DNA of 63,627 nucleotides, counting the filler, from Reticulomyxa filosa (Eukaryota; Protista; Foraminifera), in assembly GCA_000512085.1 (NCBI GenBank). It is 18 parts of 18 records of this genome, joined end to end, with 100 filler letters (N's around TTAATTAATTAA, not from the genome) between each part and the next. Parts side by side here need not be neighbours in the genome. Positions count along the whole stretch, not along the records: positions 45,262 to 50,539 come from ASPP01013654.1; 17 more parts are not named here. The stretch is one strand, 5' to 3'. Shown in pieces: positions 1 through 52,618 of the stretch. The translations under genes were made by a program, and so were the position numbers. The notes beneath the pieces are model-generated. The model saw nothing but the letters and a program-made list of their open reading frames with translations, did no database searches and was not told the origin of the DNA. Every line of letters starts with the position of its first letter. The first letter of the stretch is position 1.

Positions 1-1835
1 CTTTTTTCAGTTTTGTCGCTTTTTTCACTTTTTTCAGTTGCTGTGGAATCACGAGTGGAAGACTATAGAGTGACATAAAGCAATCAAAACAAATGACAGT
101 ACAGTAATCAAAGTAATCAAATCACAAACTCTTCAAAAAACATACCACGACGTTGGAAGCTTCATTGCCTTTGGTCTTGTTTGATTTTTGAGCAGTTCCG
201 TTCCAAATCTTAAAAAATTTCACACCGAATAAGAAAAACAACACGGATTCGGTGACAAGGAAGCATCCAATTGCAACGAATACTCGCTGAGCAACAAAGT
301 GTACACTATGAAGCACAGCCAAAGGAATAACGAACAAGAAGACGATCGAAATGGTGTAAACACTGGCCCCAAGCCAACGCGATTCATTGAAATTTTTGGG
401 AACGCTACGTACACTTACAGCCAACTGAACGATCCATAACAAAAACCCAATGCCAACCACCATAGATATAATGGTGAAAATGGATATGTATTGACACTTC
501 TGGTACACAACGCCATCTGAGTCCAAGGCGAATTGTTTGCTCCAATCTTGTAGCAAAGTCCACACAACCAGATAAGCCGCCACGATAATAAATGGAATCA
601 CCAAGAATGTGGCAAATAAGCGAGAAGTACTCCAGTTGGTACTTTGCAATTTCTTTCTTGCTCTCTTTTTTTTATATTTTATTTTTAATAAAAAAAAGCC
701 AAAAGTTCAAAATATACGTATACATACCTTTTGTCTCACCTCAAAACAGTTTACATAAAATACTTAACAAAAAAAATATTGTGAATTCTCCATGTCTTTC
801 CAGCAATTGGAAATATAATCAGCATAAGACCAAGATGAATAAGCCACATTTGGGAAATGCAATCGGTCATTTGTGGCGCTAATGGTGAAATGAAGACAAA
901 CGCTCCCATCAACAAGCATCCCAACAGAATCATCCACAAGAATGGCAGCGTAGCTCCTCGAATAATTGGTTGTTTTGAATATTTCCAGGTAAATATTCCA
1001 GTGCAAATGACGGTGAAGGCAATGATAGAGCTCAAGAGGATGGCCAATGCCCAAAGCCAATCCGGCACCTTCCACAACACATTTTCAAAAGTGATATCAT
1101 AGGATTCAACAAAGCTCTTGTCGACGTTGGTTGTGATGGACAGCGAAAGACCAGTTTGAAATGCCTTAAACTTCAAGGAGTACACAGGAACGAAATAAAA
1201 GTCAAACTGCGCAATCCCGTTTGTAAAAGTAGGATTAGTTGCACCGCTGATGGTAACCAAATCGGTACCCACGGTACTAAATTTCACATATGCTACTGCA
1301 GATTGATCAAGCGACGTAACCAATGTTCCAAACGCATCGTACAACCGGCACGTCGGGCGAAGTTTGGTCCCTTGCAGTATACGGCTGGGTTGGGTCCATT
1401 TGCACTATTTAAAACATGTCATCGCGTTATTGATTATATATACATATAGCATGTGTATGTATTTGTAACACAATTGTTTGTGTGTTTATTATAGCAAAAA
1501 AAAACACAAAGTAGATCAATTAAATTCCAAACTTCCATTTTCGTAGGAGCTGTCGACTGATCTGCACCAAAAGCGGCATTATTATTTTGATACGTGCATT
1601 TGGTACACCATGTGTTGCAAGTGACAGGCATTTGAATACCCCCACCAGAGTACTGAGCAGAATTTTGGACAAAAGAAACAGTGCTGTTGTATTGCAGACA
1701 TTGTTCTAGGAACATTCCTCCACCATAGAGACCATTGTTTCCAGTGAATGTGGTTTGATTTAATTGTATGTCAGATCCAGTCGCGTGAATTCCACCACCC
1801 ACATTGCTCGCTATATTGTTGCTAAATGTACTTTT

Positions 1836-1868
<33 letters not shown>

Positions 1869-4800
1869 GTGTGTGCGTGTGGCGGTAATTGAAATCATAT
1901 TTGTATATTTTGTAACTTAACTTGTTCGTCTTTATACCATCCATCTCCAAAGCTCAATCCTCCTCCATTGGCTGCCTTGTTATTGCCGATTGTGCATTGT
2001 CTCGTCTTCAGCGCCCCAATGTCGATAGTAACGCCACCTCCACTCGTGCTGGCATTGTTTTCACTAATCGACACATTATCCATAAATATCTCAGCTGCAG
2101 TGTTCCACGTAAAGAAATTTTTATCTGATTCGATAGTCACACCTCCGCCTGAAACAGCCTATCAAAGTAAAAATGTTATTCTTATTCATATGCATACATA
2201 TATATATATGTATATGTCCTGTATATAACTTCATTGCCAGTGATAAAAGAATTTTCGATTTGAACAGTAAGACTCCATCCCTTTGTGGCGCGCACATAAA
2301 TACCTCCTCCATTTTCAATGGCCACGTTATGGGCAATGCGTGCATTACTAATCTGCGGATTTCCTCCGGTGACGGAAAGACCTCCTCCACTTCGTCCCGA
2401 TTTGTTGTTTATAATCGTCAAATTCGTTAAGATCGCCACCCCACTTGCAGCGTCCACAGCCAAAGCACCACCGATCCCGGAGGCATAATTACTGTCAAAA
2501 ATGGAGTTAGACACTGCAGCATTGCAGCCGCGAATGAATAGACCCCCTCCCTTGAAAAGCAAACAAAGCAAAAAGGGATAGTATTTTTTTTTTATTTGTT
2601 GGTTTTAAGACGAATAGAAATTGAGGAGAGGGGAGAGGGGGAGAAAGGAGAAAAAGAACAACAACAAACAAACAAACAAACAAACAAACTTGTTGAGCAA
2701 GATTGGATCGAAATTGGCAATTGGATAGATAGGAGCGACTGGCCTTGCAATCAGCATAGCCATTGCCATCGTAAAGTCCACCACCGTCAACCTTGGCCAC
2801 ATTTCCTTCAAAGATGCAGTAATGAACATCATATATTCCGGAAAGAGGCAAGCCTATTGCCGCCCCACTGCTCGCAACGATGTTGTTTCTGAAGATTGAT
2901 CCATTCACGGTCAGTTTCTCTTGTGCAACAGGTTCAAATACTGTTGGATGATTTTTTTTTTAAAATTGTAGGATCAAACAATCAATTTTTCTCAAGAGGA
3001 GAGGAAGGAGGGGGGAGAAAAAAAAACAAACTGGACCAACTAACCAATTCCTGCACCACTGTCAGCGATATTGCCGTCGAACAAACTGTCAATTACATCC
3101 ACACTTCCACCGTTCATAAGAATGCCTCCACCTGCTTTGTACGCAAAATTATTAATAAAATTACAATTTCGGAGGACGGAAAATCCTCCTTCGATTGCAA
3201 TGCCACCACCAGCTCGACAGCCACAGCCGTAAAAATTGCAATTGGTGCAATGGAGCCCTACGACAAAATCATAGCTGTTGAAATAGATCCCAGCGCCGAA
3301 GGAAGACTCGGTGATGAGGCAGTTCGTCATAGACACATTGGAGACATACATATCTTTCCTACAGTACGGGCATGAAATGGCTCCGTAAAAGCTGCCTGTG
3401 ACATTCTGAGCAATCACATTTTGCACCACATGTCGAGCCTGCGAATTTATAAATATCAGTCCGCCACTGAACAGTGCTCTCGTATTTTCAATGTACACAT
3501 CCGACATAAAGACCTCCCCTTCCGCAAATATTACTACCACACACGATGCGTATGTTATTACACCCTGTCGTATACATAAATACATATTATATGTATATGT
3601 ATGTATATGTCTATTCTTTCACTTCCAAGCCTCTGTATCCATCCTTTAAAAAAATAAATAAAAAAAAAAATGTTCACGAACAAATTACCTCAGTATTGTT
3701 TTTACAGGTCACATTCGATATTATTGTGGAAAAGACTGTGGAAAGGTAAATATTTCCAGTGTAGGAAAAGCTTCTTTCGGTCCACAGACCATCAATCCGC
3801 ACTGGCCCATTTCGAATATAGATCGGCCCTCGCGTGGAACCGTTGCTCCCTGCATCAAATATCGAGACGTTCAACAGCTGTGTCTTTCCCCACGTGTAAA
3901 GTACTGGGTCCATGGAACTGAAAAGGTTACCGTTCACCCACACGGTCTGCAACGTCAACTCTCCTCCGGAAGATACGTGGTACAGTGGTGGATTTTCCAA
4001 CTCGATATACAAATCAATTTGGATATCGTATAACGTCGTGTTGATTTCGTGAAAGTCCGCCGTTTCAAAATAATATACCCCTCCAATTGACTGGGTATAA
4101 ACGTCGAATTGGAAGCCTAATTTTTTGTTTGTTTGTTTATTTGATTTGTTTATTCAGTGTACAAACAATAAAAAGAAATAATTTACAAACGAATTTTTTA
4201 TTTTTAATAAGTTAATATTTCGTTAGTCAAGTTTTTTATTCATAACCTTTAATAAGAATAGCGATGTTTGCAAATATGGCCAACGGCTCAACAAGTAAGA
4301 ATTGATTGTCAATATCCGCACTGATTTCCACAACACAAGGACGACCGATAATGGATGTGTTACAAGCAATGGTCAGAGCTGAATTCTTGTCGGTCACGTA
4401 TAAGATATTTTGCCTATTTACGAATATGTCTGTCAGTACGATGACATTGAACGATTTGTATGCGAGTGACAATTGATAGGCTTCTTGCAAATCATCTGTC
4501 GTCAGAACATTCCCCAAACTGTATTTCGACAGGTTCTTTGCAGCTCCGGTGCGTCGTACACGTATACCACGTCCGTGTTACCTAGTTATATTGCATTTGT
4601 ACCAACGAATTTGGTTGTTTTTTTTTTTTTGTAAGAAAAGGAGAGAAAGAGAAAGAAAAAAAAAAAAGAAATAAGAGAACAATCACGGTGTGCATGTACA
4701 CCTGCATTGTTGTTCCTCGACAAATGTACACACCTGTCACAAGATAGTCTGTGATCTGTTGTTGTCCCAGATCCAAATACTCCCAAGTCATTGTTCCAGC

Positions 4801-25989: not shown

Positions 25990-28229
25990 TTACCGCAATT
26001 GTCCGTTTTGGTGGTGTAATTGATGAAAATTTGCATAACTCATGAATTGTAAAGGTACCTCTTTCAAAGTTTCTCGCGATAACTGTGCAAAATTTGTTTC
26101 AGCCAGTCCAATAGGTTCTCCTTTTTCGTTTGTCAGTATTTTTGAATAGTCTTGGAAAGACACGAATTGTACAATATCTCGTTTAGCTGTCTGACCAGTA
26201 GAAGCTTGAAGTGCTCCACTGTCTGCATCCAATTGTTTCATTAAATAAAAATCTGCCATTCCAACACCAACAATAATTACCGATAACGGCAAATACTTAT
26301 TGGCAGCCATTACCAATCTAACAAGATTTTTTAAAACTACTAATAATGATCAAGTTTTTTTAAGACTTCAAAAGCAATGGTTGTATAGAGGAGGATATAA
26401 TACAAAATTGTATAAAGAGAAAAACTAAACAAATCCTTTGTTTCTTGAAAATCCTCAATCACACCATCCGTTAAAATTAACAAAGTGTAATATTTAATTT
26501 TATGTTTGACGTTGGAATGAGCCATCTCTGCAAGGTAACAGCTTTCTTTAAAATGGGATAAAACAGCGTTGGTCCAAATAGTTCAACCTTTGCCAGTGCA
26601 TTCAAATATGCTTCTTCAATGCCATAAACTCCACGGACTTCAGGATTCATATCATTACCGTTTAAAGGGAAGACATGCATTACATCTCCATGTGGAATTT
26701 TTCCACCCTTATTTCCAACGCAAGGTGTGCATAAAACAAGCAAAAAATTAATTGAAAAAAAATGAACAATTTTTTTGCTTGCCTACAATCTAGAATACAT
26801 TAAAAAAAAACAAACTAAAAAAATACTTAACAAATCCCCAAACCGGGAACCTTTGATCTGAGTCGTAACACGACACAGTGTTTGCAATAGTTCGAAGTGC
26901 AAGTTGATATTGTGTGCCTTGTGCAGACAAATGGTGTAAACTTTGAGAATGAGATGGTTTGCCATTTGATGCAGTAAAATCAATGGCAACCATTAATGAC
27001 AAATCTATTCCTCCCATCACATAATCTAAAAACGAGAAAAAAGGTGTGGATCTAAATTCTACTACTTTCAGAGTACCCACTTTTTTTCCTTTTTTCTTGC
27101 CATTTTCTAATTCAACATTGAAATTTTTTCGCAAAGCATTCAAAGTAGTTTTGACTTCACCAATCAATTCATGCGATCCATTGCTATCCCAATCGAGTAC
27201 TCTGAAAAAAGTATCCACAATATATAATAATGTTATTGGCTCATTTCATTGCATCAGCCTACACACATGCACACAAATACCTCAAAAGCAAAGATCGATC
27301 TGGATCTGAATTGCACAATTCTTGTGAACTGATGGTGATAGGTTTCCAAACTGGCTTTTCCGTATTGTCAATCTTTTCGGTCCTATACACCAAAAGTGGT
27401 TGTGTATTGGTCATACGATAAATCTCCAAGAACGGATCTGATTTTCCAAAGAAATCCATGCTGGCCAAATGCTCACCTCCAAATGTAATCACTATTCCTT
27501 CATGTCCACATTTAGCTACAACTTCTATACGAGCTGTCAATCGTGAACACATTTTTGTCGATCCATTTTTCATTGATTTCCCTTTGTGCAATAACATTCT
27601 CGTCATTTGCTGACCTATACATGTCATTCATACCGTATTTGTTTAAATAACCAATATAACAACATCATTAAACAAAAAAATATACAAATTACCAGAAGCA
27701 TGCATAATCTCTCCCAATGTCATATTGCAACATCCGATGAAATCCTGTCCTTTTAGACTTTTGGCGTTGTTTTTGTCTTGATCGTATACGTCAAATCTTA
27801 CCTCTTGCTCTTCTTCAAATGCAAAATCGACTACAAATGATTTTCCAAAACTGGGATTGTATTCATCCCTTTCGTTCACATGCACAGCAAAAAAAAAAAT
27901 ATTGAAAAAAAATAAATTTTGAAAAAGAATGTCCATGTGTTTTTTGTAGTGTGATGATGTTACTCTCAACTTGATTGTTTCTGTTCGTCCAATTTCCTCA
28001 AATTTTCCCGTTTTTGAATCTTTTATGGATACTGCAAGTATACAGTGTTAGTATCGTGTGTGCAATATTTTTTAAAAATGTGCAAATATTGGAGCAGACG
28101 TATAACTTTACCTACAACAAAAGCATCTGTCTTGCTGAACATATCCTTGCTCACGAGATCTTGACATGACAAAAAAATTTCAATTTTTTCTTTGTAATCT
28201 CCTCCAGCTGATTTTGGATCTTGCGTCAT
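25990..28229 (-). CDS. Copine (C2A-C2B-vWA)
   Basis: SCQDLVSKDMFSKTDAF, MDFFGKSDPFL, VAIDFTASNG, YDSDQRFPVWGF, GPTLFYP, LLILTDGVI, PLSVIIVGVG, RDIVQFV. Confidence 0.95.
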
Positions 28230-28574
28230 TTTTGGATAACAATAACAAAAAAGAAGTAAAGAACTGCTTACTAGATAAAAAGTTTTTCTTTTGTCTTTTT
28301 TTCGAAAAAAAAAAGGGAAGAAAAGGGCAAGGAACGTCGAAGAGAGAAGATACATGTGGAATTGCTTTGCCGAAAAAAGCAAAATAAAAGATATCAAAAT
28401 ACAAAAGGTCTAGACTTGCTTTCTGTAGCAAAAAAAACCCCTACACATAGAGAGGGTAAACGAATCATTACAATGTGAACATCACCACTCATCACTTGGA
28501 GAAACAACAAATAAACAAAAACAAAGGAGAAAAAAAAAGGGAAAAGCAACAACAACTAAAGAAAAATTATTTTC

Positions 28575-30021: not shown

Positions 30022-33000
30022 GCTATTACTATTAGTACTGCTATTGCCTGTACTTGATCCAAGGCCATGAGTGGTGACAATAGCCTTGTGTTCATCGACG
30101 ATCTCGACTTTGTTGGGCAATGTGTTTTCGTGACAAGCCAAGATGAACTTGTCGGTTTCTTGATCGGAGCGAATTAAATGGGTGGCATCGTAGAGTTGTC
30201 GATTGGCTTTGTTGATTTTTTTGAGCGCGGAAAATAGCACATCGATGACTTGCGCACACGTTTTGATGAGCAGATATTCCCTTTCCACCTCTTTCATTCG
30301 AAACGTGTCCAGAATCACTCCATTGCAAATGTGCTCTTTCTTACGCACCGCCTTTAGCAGCTTCTTGCTCGTCTCCCACGCCTCGTCGGTGCGACGATAA
30401 TTGTACTGTGTCTCATGCATTTGCTGCAGCAAGGTCAGCAATGTATCTTCCATTGACGTCTGTTCCACCGCCTGCTTCCACGCGTTCTGTGCCGTTCGAA
30501 ACAGTTTCTGACATGTGTTTCTCTCCTCGTAGCACTGTTCTACGTGCTTGGTTGCAAACTGCACTTCCGTCGACAGCGTCATTTTCTTGCGCTGCAACAT
30601 GCGCGTTATGTTGCGCAACTCGGCCTTCAACACTTTCAAGGGAATGACAACGTCTTTGATTTCGATTGCGCTGTTGCGATAGGCCTGGCTTTGCACCTCC
30701 GTCACACTTCGCAATTGGTTCCAACACGTTTGCTCGCATGAATTCGCTTGCGGTAATGTCTTCATTTGCGTGTGACACGTTTGCAACTTTTTGCTATGGT
30801 TGTCCCATATCAGCGACAGGTCTTCCAACACCTTTGACATTTGCTTGATTTGGGCTCGTCCGTCCTCGCTCTGCTTCAGCACCGTCTCGAACGCCTGCGC
30901 ACCCCACAAATTGTCCGCGTAATGATTCACGCTCACCTGGTCTTGGCCAGGCCCCTTCTTCTTCAGGTTTTCCTTTGGGATTAGCAGCGACATTGATCGA
31001 GGCTTCATCCCACTCTCTTTGAATGAATGGCGTGCTTCCATTTCATTTGCACTTGCATTTGCATTTGCATTCACATTTGCATTTGCATTTGCATTTGCAG
31101 TTGCATTTGTGGTAGGGTCCTCTGGCAATGGCAGTGACTCAAATTTTTTTAACACAACCTCAGACGTCTTTTCAGAATCAGATGCACCTTCACTTGTTGA
31201 CTTGCTCGTTTTCTCGTATTTGTTCTCACCCTCGTCTCCATCCTTTTCTTCCAGGACCGGTGGCAATGTCAAAATTTTCAATCCGGTGGTGTCCTTGTGT
31301 TCCTCATTATCATTGACATTGGTATTGGCGTTGGCGTTGACATTGACATTGCGGTTGGGGTCAATTGTGGTTGATTGGTCTTTGGAATCACTTTTGTCGC
31401 GACGATGGCCTTGACTATCAAGAACGAGGTTGTCATTTGCAATACCGGTGTCAGTGTTGCTGTCGGTGGTGATGGCGACGAGGACGGAGGACAAGGTGAG
31501 CGCTTCGGCATTGCGTTGGGCCTTGTCGTCTGTTGGAAGAGACGCACTGCTGCTGCTGCTGCTGCCGCCGTCAGTTTGAGTCGACACTTTCAATTGAGTG
31601 TTGTCTCCAGACGGAGCAGGTACGCGGCGTGACGAAGAGGACGAGGATGAGGATGAGGATGATGAAGCCGATGCTGAGGTGGCCGCTCCGGATGATGACG
31701 ATGATGACGTGGACAGTAAAGTATCTTGCAAGTCAACAATGGACAGATTGTACTTTTCGACGACTGAAGGAAGCTCAATTCTTTGGACAACGAGTAGCGC
31801 CTTTCCAAAGTCCCACTTTGTGGCCCTTTGATATTATCTGTGTTGTTTTTCATTTCAACACCAGCACCACTTTCATTGCCACGTTTCTTTTCCTTGATAT
31901 TGCTATTGCTATTGCTATTGCTGTTGATGGGAGCATCAGAGTTGAACTTTTGATCATAGCCATGCTCGTCACTATCTGCATTGGGCGTGGACGGTCTCTC
32001 CAGCACGTCTCCGTCGATACTGGCCTGACGATTTTGCGGGATCTCATTTCCTTCGGAAAACGACTCAATGTCCATTTCCGGCGAAATTTTTTCCAAGAGG
32101 CGACGCAACTGGGCAAACTCATCGACATAGGATTGGTGCAGTTGCTGTTGGTTGGAGGCAAATTGCAGCATGAGGTCTTTGAACATTTTGATGCGGTCGC
32201 AGCTGTAGCGCTTCACATCCGCTATCATCTGCGGCATCGACTCGGTGAAGATGTCCAAATTCGTCAAAAACGCCGTCGTCGATTCCACATGCTCGATATC
32301 CGCTTGATCGCGATTGTCTAGCGCTGTTACCATGGTCGTCATACGCTTTGGATTGCTCGTCAAATCTTTTTGCGCGGACTTATTGTCCCCCATGTTGTTA
32401 TTACTATTATTATTATTATTATTAATAGTATGATCATTATTATTATTATTATTATCATCATCATCATCATCATCAATGGTATGGTTTTCATTGTCGTCAT
32501 CATCATTGTCGACTTGAAGATGATATTGTTGCGACTGAGTGGCACCAGTATTGTTATTGCGATTGTTGATATCGGCCAGCCGTTTGATGGATTTTGTCCT
32601 CGTCTTGTTGGTGAACTCGACGTCGCACTTCCTAGTGGCCGTGCGCTTTTCGCACTCTTTAGCGGTTTCGAAGAGCACTTTGATGTTGGACTTGGTGGTG
32701 TGTATCATTTCGATGAGAGGGATGGCGCACCCTTTTTTGCATTGGCCAAAGGACTGTTCGGTCATGGAAGACATTTTCTGGAACAGCTGTCGACACTGGA
32801 GCCAGGGCAGGTCAATGGACGTTTTGGTGTTGGGCAGAGTGGAGTGGAAGGCATGCACCAGCTTGGACATGTGTGTCATATGTTCGAAATGCACGCTTTG
32901 CCAGCGCGTGAGAAACAGCGATATTTCGTCAAACAGCACATTTTGAGCTTCGATGCGAGCGTCCAAAGAATGCCAATGGCGATCGTACAGACGTTTCTTT

Positions 33001-34314
33001 TTGAAGAACTCCACAGACATCCAGCTAATGTGCATGACGGGTTGTTCGATCAAGTCTTTTTCCGTCACGAGGATATCAGTGGGACGAGGAGTCCCAAACA
33101 ATCCAGGATCCAATGATAATGGAAAGCCATTGGGATAAGTAAAGGCATACCCACTACTATTACTATTGCTATTGCTATCACTACTAAATATAGTATGTCT
33201 GGTATGACTTGGACTACGAGAGTGGCCATGACCATGGGTAGTAGAAAAAGGCTTGGCGACGATATAAGGGTTAAGCTTGTCCCACATGAACGTGGAGTCA
33301 TTTAAAAAAGGGGTAACCTTGCCATTAGTCTCGTCGATTTTTTCATCGAAATACAAGACTTCGTAGTTGTGTCCTGACGCTTCGAAACGCTCGTCGATGA
33401 AGCATTGGAACATTTGCGACTCCACGAACATTTCAAAGAAGGTCTGGTTTTCCGTGTTGGGACAGTTGTCTCGAATCCACTTGTCTTTGTTAAACTTTTC
33501 TTTGGAAAAGTCGTTGTTCGATGGGTTCATATAATTCTTATAATCGCGGAATAGCTTGGCATAAAATCGCACAAACGCTTCTCTCATCTTTTCCTCTTCC
33601 ACACTCATGTTGGGCTTCAAGGGTTGGCTGGGGTCTTTGATCAACTTGGATGTATACCGGTCCAACTTTTGTCTGGGGAAATACGGAATGGGGTCATTGC
33701 GATGATGCGAAATGCTATTGTCATCCAAGTTCACAAAGATCACCCCATCCAATGTCTCCACGTCCGGCATATACTCGGGCAACACTCCACACAGAAATGG
33801 CATCGGTGCCGTGATAAAGTCGATAAACTTGCTTGGTAATACTGGCACGTATATATGCTGCCAATAAAAAGGGTAGATCAATGTCGTCAGCCCTTCAATG
33901 CACGGGGTCAACAACGACAGATTGTTACTGAAAAACAGTATACGTTTTTCACACAAAATCGCGCCCATTAAGGTTATTATGTTTGAAATGCTCATCACGT
34001 GAAACAACGTGTCCAGGCTGTGTCCTCGCAAAGGGAGCTGGTTCGGAGGGGGTCGCACGAATTCAATCCTCTCGTTGTACACTTCCAACTGCACAATGCG
34101 ACGGCCCAATGGGGGCAATGGCGTTTCCATTATTATGTTTTGCAACACCTTTTCGATCGGATATAACACTGACTTAGTTTGGCTCTCCTCCTCCTCTGTC
34201 ACCTCGTACAGCTTTGTTAAGATTTTATTGAATTGCTCATAAAATGGCCAGTGCGATGATATTACTAATGCGATCGGTTCGTAATAGACTTCGTTGTCAT
34301 CATTTTCATTGTCA

Positions 34315-34385
<71 letters not shown>

Positions 34386-34972
34386 GTCATTGTTGTTACT
34401 ATTATTGTCAGTAGTAACGTTGTCATTCGTACTATCCTTTTGTAACTTTAGCTTGTCCTGTTTCTTGGATAGATTATGTCCTTTTGCTCGGTATTGCCTC
34501 TTTGTTTCCTTGCTCAACTCGCGATTGTAACGCAAGGCCGAACAATACACTCTTGAACCGTCTGCTTCCGTTAGCACGAATGAATATTGCTGGGGTTCCA
34601 TTTTGCTGCTTGCAAAACGCGCCCCGTCGGGATATGCAAATGCTCCAAAGTCTTTGGGAAACTCACTGTCATTGTGATCAGTGGACGGATACCGAAGGCA
34701 TGGAGACATTGGGATACCTCTTTGCTGAACTAAAAACATACAGCATGTACAAAATTCATTCTGACTAAAGGGTACTCATATTTTTATCTTTCCTCTCCCC
34801 CCTCGGTATTACATGCACTCAAGGGTTAAAAAAAAAACAAAAAAAAAATGTGGAACATTGAGTCAATAAGACTGGTAAATGAAACTACATTACATCTTTG
34901 AGTCGTTGTCACATGGTTTATATCCAATCTAAGGACCGCAAAATAATCTGCAACACGAAATGGAGCTGGCAT
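28575..34972 (-). CDS. Large DENN-domain (Rab GEF) protein with three F-BAR-like coiled-coil units; interrupted by three frame breaks
   Basis: uDENN RVADYF, FAYPDG, SFVLTEADGSRVY; cDENN LCEKRILF, PFYWQHIYVPVLP, APMPFLCGV; dDENN FVESQMFQCFIDER; F-BAR-like YADNLWG..FETVLKQSEDG. Confidence 0.85.
29931..30025 (-). repeat. (AAT/AAC)n microsatellite encoding poly-Asn; similar tracts at ~34310-34400 and ~39765-39850
   Basis: Trinucleotide repeats directly visible within ORFs. Confidence 0.95.
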
Positions 34973-43600: not shown

Positions 43601-45261
43601 TTTGTGCCACAAAAACTCAATCTGTCTTATTTCGATTTTTTTTTAGCAATAGGGACAACAAATTTATATTAAGTTTTTTTTGTTCTAGAGTAGATTTTTG
43701 CTGATTAAAAAAACTCGTTTTCTACTCTATTTTTTAAAAAAGTCTTGCTTATTCATGTTTGAAAAGCATCTTTCATCTATTACAAAGAATTAATTGTTTT
43801 CACTTTCTATATATCACATATGAGGCAATTTAGTACCGTTTCTTTGTCGAAAGCACATGATCTTGAAGAATTTTAAGTTTGATGATATTGAATATTTTCG
43901 TTGTTTTGAGATGTTGTTCAAAAGAAGATATTGCATTGAATTAATAAATGGCATCACAATCATATACGCTCTTTTCGTTTTACTTTGTCTCTTTTTCATT
44001 CTGCAATCTCATTCCTTTCATGAGCGTGCTCTTTATCTAATAATGTTAGTATTGTATGTAGTTGATAAATGCGTTTGTGTATCAAAAACTTGACTTTGAT
44101 TTTATTTTTTATAAGCTTCATTCCACAAATTTACAAAAGAGAATTTCCATTGAAAAACTGATTTTTCTTTATAAAAATAGATACATTAAATAAAAATAAA
44201 AATTTTGCTTTGAAATTTTTGTTATCATCAACTAGTAGATGTTCAAATATTTCTGCAATAAAAAATTAAATAAAATAATATCACATTAAAAAAAGTGTTG
44301 TGCATGTGCGTTTACAGTATTTAAAGTAATTTTTGTACAAATATATTCATTATATTATTGAATAGAGTCACATGTGCTTTACAATAAATACGAATAATTT
44401 GATTTTGCTGATTTGTGTATGGAAAATATATTATTATAAATGTTTAAAAAATTTTCTCATATAAATCGAAAAATTTACTTTTTTTTAATTAATTTTTATT
44501 TATCTGTTACTAAAAATTGTCAAATTATTATTTTTTTTTATTTTAGTCTTATTTATAAGTTCATATGTTGATAGTAGAAATAAGCACAGCTATGACACTT
44601 TTTTTTTTCAATAAATATCTTCATAAAAAGTAATTATATATTTTTTTCTTCGATTGTTTGCAGTTTCCAAAAGAGTCCTAGCCTCTTCAAGGTGTTTGGT
44701 GATATTACAATTTAATTTAGAACAAATAAATGTTGTGGAGAAAGTAAGTGGAAACTTTTAAGAAAAAGGGGCAACATTACCACTGGGCGGTAGGTATCAC
44801 CTAACAAAGCAATCAGTGCTAGAGAATTTCATTAAAGTCATCGCTTGACAAAACAAAGCAACTTTCGGACTGAGAGTACATTGACAACAAGATGGGCAGA
44901 AAAAAAATCTTGAGGGAAAAACATTTGTTATGAAAGAAGATGTCTTTATTGAGTAGATATCGTATTTTGAGAAAGAAAGTTGAATAATGTTTTGAGAAAA
45001 GCGGATGGAAGGGAGGGGCAAAGAAGAAAATTTTTTTTTTTTGTTAAACAATTAAAGATTTATTAAACGAACAAAAAAAATAAAAAATGTGTCATTTGTA
45101 ATAAAAAAAGACGTGACAACAATCGGGGTATCAAAATCCAGAAAGCATCATGCGATCATCANNNNNNNNNNNNNNNNNNNNNNNNNNNNNNNNNNNNNNN
45201 NNNNNTTAATTAATTAANNNNNNNNNNNNNNNNNNNNNNNNNNNNNNNNNNNNNNNNNNNN

Positions 45262-47117
45262 ATGCAAAGTGCAAACAAACAACTACTTTTTTTTTTTTTT
45301 TAAAGCATGATGTATCCCAATATAAGAGTAAGGAGGATACGTGTGTAAATTTTTTTTTAGGTAACAAAAATTCAACACGTGCCCGACCAAAAGTTATGTA
45401 ACTGTAAAATATTCCTTGCCTTTTACTGTTCCTTTATGGGTTCCGGTGCTTCCCCCAGTCAATTCGATTCCATAAAATATACCTTGAGCATAATGCACCT
45501 CTCCAATGTACCTTTATTTTTTTGAAAATATCTGATATATTTTTATCCAAATAAAAAAAAATTTAAAAAAAAAAAAAAACCTGATGTAGCCCTCTCTATC
45601 TTGTGTTAAGATGACCAAGTCTCCAACTTGGTATTCGTTTTTTTTTTGCTCCGATGCATCAGCTCTTTTATTGGAATTACGTTTGGGATGCTGTCGATAT
45701 CCAAAACCAATCTTTGTAATTGCATTTTCATCGTCAAAGTATTCGGCGTCGAGTAGATTAGTGTCAGGTTTATTCGAACGTTTCAATTTGAGGACTTCGT
45801 AAATTGACGGAAGAGAGTCCGATTCAATAATGTATCGCTGTTCTTCTTCGTCATATCTGATCATCATCTCACCTCCTTTCCAATGATTGCTGCCATTCGC
45901 ATTGATTGTTATGTGTCCATCTTTTCCATCCGATTCATTCAGACCATGTTTGCATAAACATGTGGACATTATAAAAAAAAAAAAAAGGAGGGAAGATAGA
46001 GTGTACATTAATTCGAGCAAAAAAAAACAAAACAAAACAAAAAATAATAAGCTTGTGACTGAGTGTTTAATTTTGCGTGATGCTGACCTGCAGAAATGTC
46101 ATATCGACACTGAGTCCCATCATCATAAGTGAGATTCCATACTCCATAAATTATTTCCATGGAGCTGTTATTCGATGAATTGGAAGGAACAATACCCAAC
46201 TCTTCCCCTTCTTCTTTCAATATCTTACCTGTTAACTTTTTTAAAAAATAAATAATAATAAAAATTGAAATTGTAACTTTGTCTGTTCAAAAGGGGATAT
46301 ATGTACATGCACATATACATGCGAAATGTATGTGTATGTGTAATAACCCAACATCAAATTTAATTTGCAAAGACTCTTGTCTTCTTTGTCTATTCGGAGA
46401 CGAATTGTCTTTGTTTGTCATTTTTCTTCGAATGTTATTGTGGTCAACAAAAATGCATCTTTGATCTGTTCCTTGGAAATAATTCTTTCCTTGGTAGGTT
46501 CCATTGTGTTCTCCAAGGCTTCCGGCTATCAATTCTATTCCATATTGCAATGTAGATTCACTAATCCCGGATACAATCCCAATATATTTCACTATCCCCT
46601 CTCGGTCTTTCGACAGCAACACGCGATCACCAAGTTCATAATTATTTGCGTATTGCGTCATTTTACCTTTGATTTCGAGCTTTTTTTCGTCATCAAAATG
46701 TACCAATCCTAATGTTCTATTTTGAATTTGACTTTGATTTGATTGTGATGGCTTATGTCCTTTTGCTTCGTTACTTGGCTTTTGAGGAGGCGAACCACCA
46801 CTCACTACTTCAAATATGCTTCGAGACAACGCATTTTCTATGCAATATTCATTTGCGTCTTTATCATATGCAATCGTCGTATTTATATTATCCCAATTGT
46901 TTATATTCGATGGAATTGTCGTCACATGTCCGTCTTTTTTTTTTTTTTTTTGTTGAGTTGTTTGTTTCTTTGGTTAAGTTTACAGAAAAGTTTTTTTTGG
47001 GGTATCCAGCTCACCACGAGCAATCATATAAGTTGCAATGGAACCATTTTGGAGTCTCACTATCCACGTACCACTAACCATGGAAAGTGGTCCTACCACT
47101 TGTATAGTTAGTGACAT
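45262..47117 (-). CDS. Tandem CAP-Gly domain protein, 3' end uncertain
   Basis: YELGDRVLL..REGIVKYIG..YGIEL..GEHNGTYQGKNYF and YQVGDLVIL..REGYIR/YIGEV..YGIEL..GTHKGTVKGKEYF. Confidence 0.85.
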
Positions 47118-47461: not shown

Positions 47462-48930
47462 TTATATCAACAAAAATCTGCTGTAAGCACACAAGATTGA
47501 CAAGAAAATAAAGATCTCCGTTTGTTGAACTTTTTTTTTTAAATCATTCATCCTTTTTAAAAAAAAGTGAAAGTAACTTGAAACAAACAAAAACAAACAA
47601 AGCAATGCAAAACAAAAAAAGGAAAAAAACACATTACCATTGTTCAATAAACGCTTTGGTGCCTCCCGAATATGAAGCTCCTTGAATTTGGAAAGGAGAT
47701 TCGTTGACCAACTCACCTTTTTCATTACAATAAACAACGGATCGTATATGCAAACCCCTCAGCACTGACAAACATTGAGTGCATGGACGAGAACAACCCA
47801 GTTGCAAGTCCAATTCGCTTTCACAATCATCAACTTTTTCATTGAAAAGGCGAGCCCACTTTTTTTGTGGTGGTGGTTCGATGAAACGAATGACAACAAG
47901 TGTGCATCGTTTTAAGTAACGAAATTGACGACACTTTGGCGGCAGACCATTGATGGCACCTATTTCTGCATGCCTCGTCACCATATTCGATATATTGTCT
48001 CCCAATTTCGACAACAACTTGTGAAAATTGCTGTGTGCGCGCACGACACGATATAGTAAGGACAAGTTATGAAAAACAAACAAACAAACAAAAAAGAAAT
48101 TTTCTTTAGAAATTTCCACTCCACTCTCTACACGTTTGTGCCAACAAAAAAAAAAAAAAGTTAGGAATAAATTTAAAAACTGATGTAATTTCGGTGAGGC
48201 CATGCCACAAAAGCGAATAGGTGTAATTCGTTTTCCACCCTTAATGATAAATGCGCACAACTGAATGTTTTTATTTTTTAATGGCGAAATGTGGTTGAGA
48301 CCTAATTTCTTGCGACGCTTGCTTCGATTTGCGGCATATATACTCACGTTTTCTATGCTTACGTGTGACTTTGATTTATGTTTTTTGGTCGGAAAGGAAA
48401 TGCTTGTTCTTCCCCTTTCTTTTGATTCGGGTGCGAGTGCTGACGTAGATGTGGATGAAAATGCGGGTGTGAAATGAGTGTGGTATGATGAACTTGCTTG
48501 CTTGGCTCTGTTATTCGCATACGGGACAGCCCCATAGAAGACAGTCCCGTACCCCACTCTCATCATCTGGCGTATTACCGCTTTCCTCGCTACCACAACT
48601 AATACTAGGGCTTGAGCTGCATGTGCTCTCCGTCGCTGATGCTGTCGATATGGTTGATGCTGTACTCCACGTGTCCTGACAGCCAGGCGAACATGATAAA
48701 CGTTGCGGAGCACCTTGTTTGGGTAACTTTTCTTGATACTTTTGTCGTCTTTCTTCCAAACAGTGCTGCTGCAAATGGGAGATGGTCGTGTACACAATTG
48801 GCGGGACATTTGCCCTGTTGTTCTTGTTGTGCGAAGCGTAATGCAGCTTAAACACCAACGGGTCCAGTTCCACGTCCACCATTTTCTCTTCTTCATTTTT
48901 TTCTAACAAATTTTTTTCCTTATTCAGCAT
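47462..48930 (-). CDS. Zinc-dependent cytidine/CMP-deaminase-fold protein with long low-complexity N-terminus
   Basis: HAE (47964-47972), CTLVVIR, SRPCTQC (~47772-47792), IRSVVYCNEKG; intron 48031-48180 and a terminal intron. Confidence 0.85.
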
Positions 48931-49518: not shown

Positions 49519-50421
49519 TCAAGGAATTTCAAAGTTTCCAGAGCTTTGGGCCGGAACATGTCCAAATAGTCGGCGTTTCTTCTGTGACTTTGCGTCTTTT
49601 TTTGCAACTTTTGATGCTAGTGTGTACAATTCTTCTGGTTTGACTATGTCTTGTTTTTGTAGCTCTTTTTCCAAAAAGTTATACAAAGAAAGCTCTTTGT
49701 CGCATGTGTACGGAGTCTGAACAAAAAGACACACACACACACACGCACGCATGCACACGCATACGAAAAAGATGTCAGAGCATGTATCATAACAACTCAT
49801 TTGGATAACAGAATGATGTAAGACATAACTTTTTGATACAACAAACTATTTTCAATTTGAGTATTCAATCGAATCAGTTTGCTGAAATTAACAGTGCCAT
49901 CGTCTTTACGTTTGCGTGTTCCTTCTTCGATGGAAACAAGATCGGACAGGAAAATACCGGTGTAAGGGATCATAGGTGCGCATGCCTCTCTGTGAATCCT
50001 TCGAAGGTTCGACATGTTGTGTGCGGTCCTAAAAATCACTTTCATTCTTCGAATCTTGCCAAATGTTTACTTGGAACAAATTTCCAGGCCGCTTTCAGTT
50101 TGTGGATAGGTGCACTTGTCAAGGCACCGTGCACAGCACTCAGGCTTTGAAAATTGTGTAGTAAAAATAATTCCTGTAAGAAAGCAACAAATAAACAAAA
50201 CTAAAAAATGAAGCAAAAAAAAAAAATAAAATAAAAAAATGAAAAATAAAAAGAGACCATACATTTGCAAGCTTTAAAAATTTTTTAATCAAGCGCCCAC
50301 GCTTTTTCGCATCAGGAGCACTCAAGATAGTTGTCTGCACAAATTTAGATGTTCGATTGAATTGATCAATGAATTTGCAAATGTTGGGTGCCAACTGTAA
50401 CTTATGTTCACTTTTCCAAGC
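49519..50421 (-). CDS. RasGEF (CDC25 domain), C-terminal part
   Basis: APNI..FIDQFN, NFQSLSAVHGALTSAPIHKLKAAW, PMIPYTGIFLSDL..IEEG, VNFSKL. Confidence 0.92.
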
Positions 50422-50960
50422 CTAAATGAATATACGTATATATCATTTATTAAAAAAAAAAAAAAAAAAAGTTAAATTTGTAATGACTATTTTTATTTGT
50501 TGTTTTGGTATTTTTTTTTAAAGAATAAAAAAAAAAAAANNNNNNNNNNNNNNNNNNNNNNNNNNNNNNNNNNNNNNNNNNNNTTAATTAATTAANNNNN
50601 NNNNNNNNNNNNNNNNNNNNNNNNNNNNNNNNNNNNNNNTTGAAAGAATGATATCTATCTCCAACATAAAAAAAAGTTATTCAAAAATCAATATTATATT
50701 TAAAAACTACAAGAATTTTTTTTTTTTTAAATTAGCTTTAAATGTTTATTTTTCATTTAAGAAAATCTATCATCTTCATAAAGGTGGTGTTCAGTTTGTT
50801 TTTTTTTTTTTGCAACATACTGTAGTACAAATTTTGTTTTGCAAATAATCGATTCAAGGAAAGTCCTTTTAACAATTTGTGACATAAATATTAAAATTTA
50901 ATGCATTTATTGTAAGAAAAGATATAAAAAAAAGTTGTATATTGTCCAAATCTTTGATTT

Positions 50961-52618
50961 TTATTGCTCCAATAAGTTAGGTTTGTTTTCAATTAATTTA
51001 GGCTCATTATTTGTGATCTCTTGAATATGTTGACTCCAAACACAGTCTTGAAGAGAGTCTAAATCAATGGAAATAAAAACATTTCCGTTTGAAGTCTGCT
51101 TTGTGTCGATTTTCAAATGTGGAAACCAAGTGAGTAAAAAAGTTTTGCATTGAGACAATTCGGAAGATGAAATGGCAGTGTGTGATAAGCGAACATTGAT
51201 CACATTTGTAATGGCTTGCAAAAATTGTTTCTGTTGAATGTTCAACAGCAGACATAATAAGAGGGATTGTAGTTCTATATCGCCCCATCCTGCCAAATCC
51301 AATGATGAAATAACTTCATCAGGCCACAAATATTTCTGAATGTGATTGTTGTCAAGCCAATATGTAATTAATCCAGACAACCACATTCGGTTCTGTTGCA
51401 AGTCTCCCTCCAATGAGAGCAAGCATTGTAAAACCGGTACGAAAAAGTGTGTTTGCAAATGGAACGGAATGTGCATATTGTCTTGTTTAGCATATCGATT
51501 ATACGCATATTCCAAGTGAATGTGTTGCATCTGAGAAGGTAAATGTTGCAGCACATGAAATAAGGAGTCGTCACAAGTTGAAATTCTAGAGACAGTTTGT
51601 CGAATCAAGTGAACATATCGATGCAAGTACATTGTGTCTTGGATGTGGAAATCAGTCCTCCAGCGCAGCAGTTCCACAAAGCGATACGTGAGTATGAGTC
51701 TTTCAACATCCATCGCAGTAGTCGTATTTGTATCTATTTCCTTTGGCAAGAACGCCTCCAGACACTGTCTGATCACACGTGAATACACAGGCATGTCCAA
51801 TACGTCTGTCATCATCTCAAAGTAATTTAGAATTCTCTGGCGATCATTAGCAGCACACAAGATGGATAGTACGGTGGTCATGATCGTAGAAGAGGGTATC
51901 ATCTGCAAATTTTCAACACTTTTCTTGAACACATGTTCGACCACTGTAACTATTGTATCCTGATATATTTGATCTCGAAACGCCAAAGTATCATTCATGT
52001 CCTTTGTATGTGTCGCTATTTTATACTGCAACAGACTATCTTGACAGTGCTCAATGCATCGCAACAGCGACAATACCAACGTAGTATGATTCTGCTTCGA
52101 CTTGTTGGCATTTGAAAATAGTTGTGTCTCGGCCTGCAGCAGCAGAAGCCACACAATCTTACCTTTGTTACAATTGTGATATAAACGCATCAGCTCGATA
52201 TACGTCTGCAGCGTCGGACACATCCCTTTCAGCATGTGCAATGCATCTGTGATAGCATGCAGATATTGCGACTGTGACATCTTTCTGTATCGCAAGGCGA
52301 TACCACGCAGATATAAATTTGCCATTGCCATTGTCAATTGCACTCCATCCCGTTTCAGGTCTTCCAACAGTATTGTTTTCATCTTTTGCAATGTCATGTC
52401 CACCTCTTCGCTTGTCGTTTCTGTCGTATTCATCGCCAATGACCTCACGTACCATGTATAAAACCCTTTTGTTTTTTGCACTTTGTTCTCCTCCATATCC
52501 TTTTTTATTGCTTCCAATGACGCGAAATCGCGCAATTCCACCAGTTCTTTAGACTGCTGTTATACACTGACGTCTCTCGTGTTGTTGTTTTCTGCAACTG
52601 TTCCCTGCAAGATCACGA

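Follow-up and report, generated by a model that had tools for sequence, protein, structure and literature searches.

A zinc deaminase encoded in two overlapping reading frames in Reticulomyxa filosa and its relatives: a probable case of programmed +1 ribosomal frameshifting

The deaminase gene RFI_17775 of the foraminiferan Reticulomyxa filosa (minus strand; NCBI record) is laid out in two overlapping reading frames, in that its first ATG opens a frame (ORF1) other than the catalytic one and the catalytic frame (ORF2) lies at +1 to it. We propose that a conserved programmed +1 ribosomal frameshift, here at AGU-GGG-GUA (48558-48550), rations the enzyme, a reading that we consider probable and for which we infer the shift, its codon, the docking of the two protein parts and the regulation from sequence and models. 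The gene lies in a stretch of 63,627 nucleotides, made of 18 parts of 18 genome records joined end to end and called the window below; the two-frame layout, its main feature, had been missed in the initial annotation of this DNA.

All five deaminase motifs lie in a single open frame (47634-48902, minus strand; Table 1), and both the intact catalytic set HAE...PCxxC and the five-motif layout were borne out where the initial annotation had placed them. The resemblance is not due to chance, as 18 of 93 candidates in a homolog search scored at E 3e-44 to 8e-22; the named ones among these 18 close homologs belong to Bolivina, Ammonia and Nonionella. The 50 residues between PKLH and NFHK are missing in all 8 of the 18 that span both sides, which defines a GT-AG intron of GC 0.31 with a T14 run. 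P0008, P0030 and P0031 end or start at its position, like unspliced copies, and the NCBI model P0022 reads through it, while a predicted intron of that model bridges the two frames and removes the junction between them. The 150-nt intron is confirmed by the homologs, and the frame change is probably no intron. The claim of a resident nuclear gene holds, given an intron conserved in position and the NCBI record of R. filosa. At the 3' end, a candidate terminal intron could plausibly bring the end of the gene to 47462; without its splicing the frame stops at 47636-47634.

Table 1. Features of the R. filosa deaminase gene, in positions of the window
Feature	Position	Strand	Remarks
ORF1, 139 codons	48511..48930	-	ATG 48930, second in-frame ATG 48882, stop 48513-48511
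Conserved ORF1 helix (PPIVY..ERR)	48745..48804	-	Helix 1 of the fold, by prediction
Putative site of the +1 switch, GAG AGT GGG GTA CGG	48547..48561	-	Would slip from P-site GGG (48555-48553) to GGG; exact codon putative
RNA hairpin, 9 bp + 5 bp	48519..48552	-	Begins at the junction
ORF2, first part (+1 frame)	48181..48551	-	Linker, basic patch, strands 1-2
Basic patch RSKRRKK	48326-48306	-	K/R clusters alike in many foram homologs; putative NLS
LCAFIIKGGK	48260-48231	-	
In-frame GT-AG intron, 150 nt	48180-48031	-	Absent from 8/8 spanning homologs
Catalytic exon	47638..48030	-	HAE 47972-47964, PCTQC 47786-47772
HAEIGAI	47972-47952	-	
LVVIR	47900-47886	-	
LGCSRPCTQC	47801-47772	-	
IRSVVYCNEKG	47747-47715	-	
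Candidate terminal intron, 157 nt	47637-47481	-	GTAATG donor, TACAG acceptor, GC 0.26
Candidate short last exon	47462..47480	-	Stop 47464-47462; from sequence

ORF1 consists of a conserved helix followed by a Ser-rich linker, and the match of this helix to the N-terminus of the Ammonia homolog P0020 (E 5e-6; 0 of 500 shuffles as good) indicates that it is real. An independent codon model, for which 3298 codons from other parts of the window served as training set, favours the ORF1 frame as far as the junction and sets the best switch point at 48558, on the junction motif described below, in a shallow optimum (top four positions 48558-48549). In the core frame, an AUG AUG stands three codons ahead of the junction. 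The RNA hairpin that starts at the junction is stable against shuffles in 56 nt (z -2.85, 1/200) and not in 91 nt (z -0.58, 52/200), and it begins in the would-be A site, which is too close for a classical stimulator. Back-translated foram rows can form a hairpin of at least 10 bp in 4 of 8 cases, or 3 of 7 once the window is set aside, compared with 141 of 1984 in the null, a compatibility that is no more than suggestive of a conserved hairpin; Rfam gave no match near threshold.

A profile search of 1.84 billion representatives returned 86 hits, comprising forams, a second tier at E 1e-13 to 1e-8, in which the dinoflagellate Abedinium is the one member with a species name among those checked, and then short stand-alone proteins. 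The offset seems to recur in two foram homologs without the 150-nt intron, P0019 and P0007, which were called in the core frame and carry the ORF1 helix in the -1 frame of their N-termini (80/110 and 68/110 with the P0020 motif, 0 of 500 shuffles each, with a positive control run), P0007 being weaker with the window motif (20 of 500 shuffles). Seven other proteins gave no -1 signal in this test, six of which start after the helix while P0020 has it in frame; P0003 was too short to count. The Ammonia record P0020 is one contiguous protein in which a stretch occurs twice, each copy beginning in a different frame, and we read it as a frame-corrected prediction, records of this type being presumably the product of a frame-tolerant program.

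The point at which the core frame takes over is marked by a junction motif, [MVIRL]G[YFL], which is carried by 9 of 15 foram rows and, in the second tier, by 10 of 19 proteins, and most rows that lack it start further downstream; most forams have an AUG at the junction. In 7 of 12 second-tier proteins the dinoflagellate ORF1 motif was found in the -1 frame exactly at the junction motif, six of them at no more than 10/300 shuffles and Abedinium P0032 at 0/300. About 21 of 33 third-tier proteins, judged by eye, have helix 1 within a single frame, and the split thus does not extend to the whole family. Several others (P0069, P0071, P0076, P0082, P0087, P0095, P0101 and several BFVD viral entries of 107-121 residues) begin no earlier than strand 1 and may be core-only calls of further two-frame genes. 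An ORF1-only search found no homolog among proteins of 76-244 residues, a third-tier protein profile did not detect the ORF1 helix, and none of 161 stretches in a metagenome contig scan for foram relatives was related, so that the foram junction DNA is known from the window alone.

The relatives' DNA, four loci (L001-L004) from 52 stretches, includes three intron-free contigs of dinoflagellate-type mRNA, L001-L003, in which the two-frame offset can be read directly. L001 and L002 open with the last 6-7 bases of a dinoflagellate-type spliced leader, as identified from a portion of PMC3101222, and ORF1 runs for 62-72 codons from the first AUG in all three. A 21-nt invariant block, the longest word common to the three contigs (the next longest has 11 nt), separates two regimes of conservation: upstream of it the peptide is conserved in the ORF1 (-1) frame with synonymous changes (ISAQV, IPASI, IPAQV), and downstream in the core frame (REDN, QEDN, CQDN). 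Its codons are identical in 7 of 7 cases against 16 of the 96 conserved core codons, the latter figure indicating purifying selection; the nominal chance of the block identity is 1e-7 if no more than one frame is constrained, and dual coding explains part of it. In L003 a core-frame stop lies 18 nt before the block, with no AUG from that stop to the HAE motif, and L001 and L002 have one upstream core-frame AUG each. Strong hairpins lie 25-28 nt past the block in L002 (~312-345, z -2.07) and L003 (~271-305, z -2.25), with z -1.06 in L001, and those of L002 and L003 are possible stimulators. The fourth locus, L004 (57-254), is a genomic contig with a single exon of a second-tier relative, its upstream part being off the contig.

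Across eight viral scans two distinct records, L005 and L011, had the layout; the other scans were empty, returned the same records or yielded the three unrelated loci L006-L008. The two have homologous 32-codon ORF1s (0 of 500 shuffles) that end in UGU UUU UAA in L005 and AAA UCC UAA in L011. In both, the core is read on in the +1 frame past an in-frame stop, with no AUG. Neighbouring genes (L005 299-5896, L011 1230-1381) look by motif like RNase H, dUTPase and exonuclease, and by eye a small similar ORF ends just upstream of ORF1 in both records.

What ORF1 might contribute is suggested by structure prediction. In the model of the isolated core no helix precedes strand 1, and the match to solved deaminases begins only at about residue 16-25. 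Against the cytidine deaminase 3dmo, the core alone aligns from residue 20 (Z 7.2, rmsd 4.0, 98 aligned) and the P0020 model, which includes ORF1, from residue 1 (Z 8.0, rmsd 3.9, 110 aligned); the latter also matches 5jfy, likewise from its first residues (Z 8.8, rmsd 3.3, 107 aligned). The ORF1-equivalent helix of this model has a pLDDT of 88-94 in surroundings of about 40. In forams the ORF1 helix is therefore predicted to be helix 1 of the deaminase fold, on docking without a control, and any amphipathic helix may fill the helix-1 groove. Position and helical pattern suggest a helix-1 role for the viral ORF1 as well.

Taken as a mechanism, ribosomes would start at the ORF1 AUG and most would stop at codon 140, releasing a short product without an active site, while a fraction would slip at AGU-GGG-GUA, with tRNA-Gly re-pairing from GGG to GGG. 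The frameshift product would have about 380 residues, in which the ORF1 helix would pack on the core across a long disordered linker. Much as with antizyme and RF2, dependence on the shift would limit the amount of enzyme or subject it to feedback control. Since the protist ORF1 reads past the site, the site there is a sense codon and not a stop; the slip codon would be GGG-G in the window and UGG-G or GUU-A in L001-L003. It is likely that the complete enzyme is made only via a one-base forward slip. The two-ORF layout with ORF2 in the +1 frame is found in the window, L001-L003, L005 and L011 and apparently in P0019 and P0007, a start of its own for ORF2 is absent in L003, L005 and L011 (AUGs occur in the window, L001 and L002), and slip-compatible sites (UUU-UAA, UCC-UAA, GGG-G) are present. 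The ORF1 sequences show no significant likeness between forams, dinoflagellates and viruses, and given this and the different sites, sense codon in protists and stop in viruses, common descent of the shift does not follow.

The offset could also be explained by an ORF1 that is merely an overlapping upstream ORF, regulating the start or giving helix 1 as a separate peptide, with the core initiating by itself at the junction on AUG, GUG or AUU. Such an own start would fit the junction residue (M, V, I, L or R, then G), the sequence context that the window and L001-L003 have there (a purine at -3, G at +4) and the hairpin at the site, and dual coding would account for the invariant block. We nevertheless regard it as unlikely: R, a poor or impossible start, stands at the junction in 6 of 10 motif-bearing second-tier proteins, eight AUGs lie from 48930 to the junction, the first counted, and the viral ORF1s stop exactly where core-frame conservation begins, with no AUG. 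The foram AUG itself is an automatic by-product of the Asp-Gly codons of ORF1.

We hold it to be very unlikely that the frames are joined in the RNA, be it by an overlooked intron, perhaps a regulated one, as the NCBI model has it, or by editing. Mechanically 155 GT-AG pairs could do so, one of them being GGG|GTACGG at the junction; P0022 and P0020 each run through as one contiguous record, and the hairpin could mask a 5' splice site. However, these candidates look exonic, with a GC of 0.42-0.57 and no long T run in contrast to the confirmed intron, and the offset is kept in homologs that are spliced at that intron, in L001-L003 and in the viral records; in addition, all 9 motif-bearing foram rows have an open core frame from the junction on. 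That the gene has decayed or was misassembled, conceivable in a draft assembly with gaps and given that indels can occur in assembled transcripts, is largely refuted and hardly credible, as the +1 offset is alike in five DNA records of unrelated source and inferred in several more proteins, and both frames are under purifying selection.

A frameshift of the proposed kind has parallels. Like the genes of antizyme and bacterial RF2, the present one has a short ORF1 and its functional part in the +1 frame without an AUG of its own, and the antizyme shift at UCC-UGA, the usual site according to part of PMC5009743, recalls the UCC-UAA at which the viral ORF1 of L011 ends. It differs from both in that the product is a deaminase, the protist ORF1 runs 12-27 codons beyond the site with no shifty stop, and part of the catalytic fold is predicted to come from ORF1. 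The class-I release factor of Mimivirus and Megavirus is likewise a case in which a giant virus needs a +1 shift at a stop codon to complete a gene (readthrough and +1 shift at CUU-UAG/UAA, as described in sections of PMC3521657), but the protein is unrelated and the present layout also occurs in cellular nuclear genes. The cdd gene of Bacillus subtilis is a deaminase gene with frameshifting, but the shift is -1 and, in the relevant part of PMC5009743, incidental, merely extending an already complete enzyme. Published literature, mostly open-access and supplements aside (e.g. the tables of the 2011 deaminase survey), held no report of the gene family or its frameshift. Going further, we entertain as a doubtful possibility that an ancient +1 frameshift, passed among giant viruses and two protist supergroups, splits the fold, and that the deaminase autoregulates by editing an RNA on which the rate of the shift depends, either a tRNA or the hairpin at its own junction. 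Autoregulatory editing, if true, would join RF2 and antizyme as the third cellular circuit that regulates itself through a frameshift.

As to the enzyme itself, HxE and PCxxC are invariant in 70 of 70 aligned rows (fragments left out), and 66 of these match Pfam PF00383 at E 0.1, the window falling under the curated cut-off. The foram core model (pLDDT 79.8) has a predicted deaminase fold, and the top structural rows for it and for the P0020 model are deaminases at Z 7.2-8.8; Foldseek returned 15 viral entries (BFVD) at E 1e-7 to 1e-3 and none from the PDB under 1e-3. Together with one short stand-alone relative that shares 94% identity with a gene of a giant-virus MAG, these viral matches support the previously noted resemblance to stand-alone giant-virus deaminases. 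In the model, strands 4 and 5 (E167-171, E177-180) are predicted to form an adjacent hairpin with no helix between them and no helix 4, which places the family in the C-terminal hairpin division, as defined by Iyer et al. in part of PMC3239186, apart from Tad2, RibD, dCMP deaminase and AID/APOBEC.

The clade motifs point the same way, so that the exclusion of Tad2/3, RibD and dCMP deaminases stands. The TadA/Tad2/Tad3 motif EPCxMC occurs in 0 of 30 rows, strand 2 being FCG.ASP and not N, with no helix 4; HxExNA of dCMP deaminase/ComE occurs in 0 of 11 foram and 1 of 19 second-tier rows, again with no helix 4; PCTQC lacks the His insert of RibD, and there is no C-terminal domain that could match its reductase fusion; and AID/APOBEC features are likewise missing (strand 3 LVVIR without the W, CSR before PC in place of SxS, no helix 4). 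CDD/CDA, blasticidin S and DYW deaminases (features from Table 1 in the consulted part of PMC3239186) are alike in the predicted strand 4-strand 5 hairpin, in the E that ends strand 5, present as LVNE in the window and most forams, and in giving the best structural matches; they differ in that PCxxCR is found in none of the 11 foram rows and none of the 19 from the second tier, HxEK in 0 of 30 protist rows, and identity is 9-16%. Nearest in fold and sequence are the stand-alone CMP/dCMP-type deaminases of giant viruses, which share HxE, PCxxC, VVIR and V.Y, whereas the protist members lack G-x-N and have long inserts, introns and a long linker; many viral stand-alone deaminases also have an in-frame helix 1.

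In a quick tree of 69 rows, a phylogenetic check of the kind first suggested, forams group at 99 and forams plus second tier at 87, the four references fall outside this protist clade, deeper nodes are unsettled, and most third-tier rows carry no origin label. A PDB sequence search and a phage tblastn with P0004 were empty, NCBIfam gave no match, and PHROGs gave a weak dCMP deaminase match only; PMC5889660 and bioRxiv 10.64898/2026.01.13.699255 deal, in the sections at hand, with other deaminases. Judged by these motifs, the clade is none of those listed and is best called unclassified.

Our best guess for the substrate, about evenly balanced and on weak grounds, is cytidine in RNA or another polynucleotide, because the core is basic (25 K+R, 13 D+E, against neutral or acidic E. 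coli CDA, TadA and RibD), G-x-N is lost and a basic patch is present. Independently of the frame question, the enzyme might deaminate a free nucleoside or nucleotide, with the shift sensing nucleotide or tRNA status, a possibility that we hold tentatively and somewhat below even. The best solved folds are those of cytidine and blasticidin S deaminases, the viral gene of L005 lies one ORF from a dUTPase-like gene (by motif), and a phage gene annotated as dCMP deaminase is equally basic (20 K+R, 11 D+E); against this stand PCxxCR in 0 and HxExNA in 1 of 30 protist rows, Z values tied across substrate classes, and a core charge unlike that of the E. coli enzymes.

The mutator or defence role envisaged initially is weakened by the slow evolution of the core (45-56% identity between R. 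filosa and other forams, purifying selection across L001-L003), which argues against an arms race, and by the searches, which gave no further R. filosa copy among the 93 candidates or 86 profile hits. A housekeeping or regulatory role appears to fit better than defence.

Several other genes are recognisable in the window, all on the minus strand. A 532-residue helical-repeat frame (50961-52559), PPR-like by eye and with a weak ATP13 match (E 0.013), lies 2 kb upstream of the deaminase along the joined stretch, with a RasGEF gene (domain exons at 49519-50421) between them. Elsewhere are a CAP-Gly domain (45514-46973; E 2.5e-13) followed by a second similar repeat seen by eye and, also by eye, a 1061-residue DENN-like frame (31593-34775), a copine-like gene (25993-28409) and a beta-helix-repeat protein with a 7TM-like region at its end (125-4577). 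The gaps at 50541-50640 and near 45200 hold the TTAATTAATTAA linker, a scaffolding artefact.

To our knowledge, conserved frameshift-dependent nuclear genes are rare in eukaryotes. The present case, if true, would extend their short list by a new family, with two types of site, a shifty stop in viruses and a sense codon in protists. The two-frame layout explains the mis-annotation of its members, namely an invented intron and N-terminally cut calls, and a core-only construct could test inactive if ORF1 is needed. As an unclassified deaminase clade, the family is of interest for RNA editing in forams and dinoflagellates and for the discovery of base editors.
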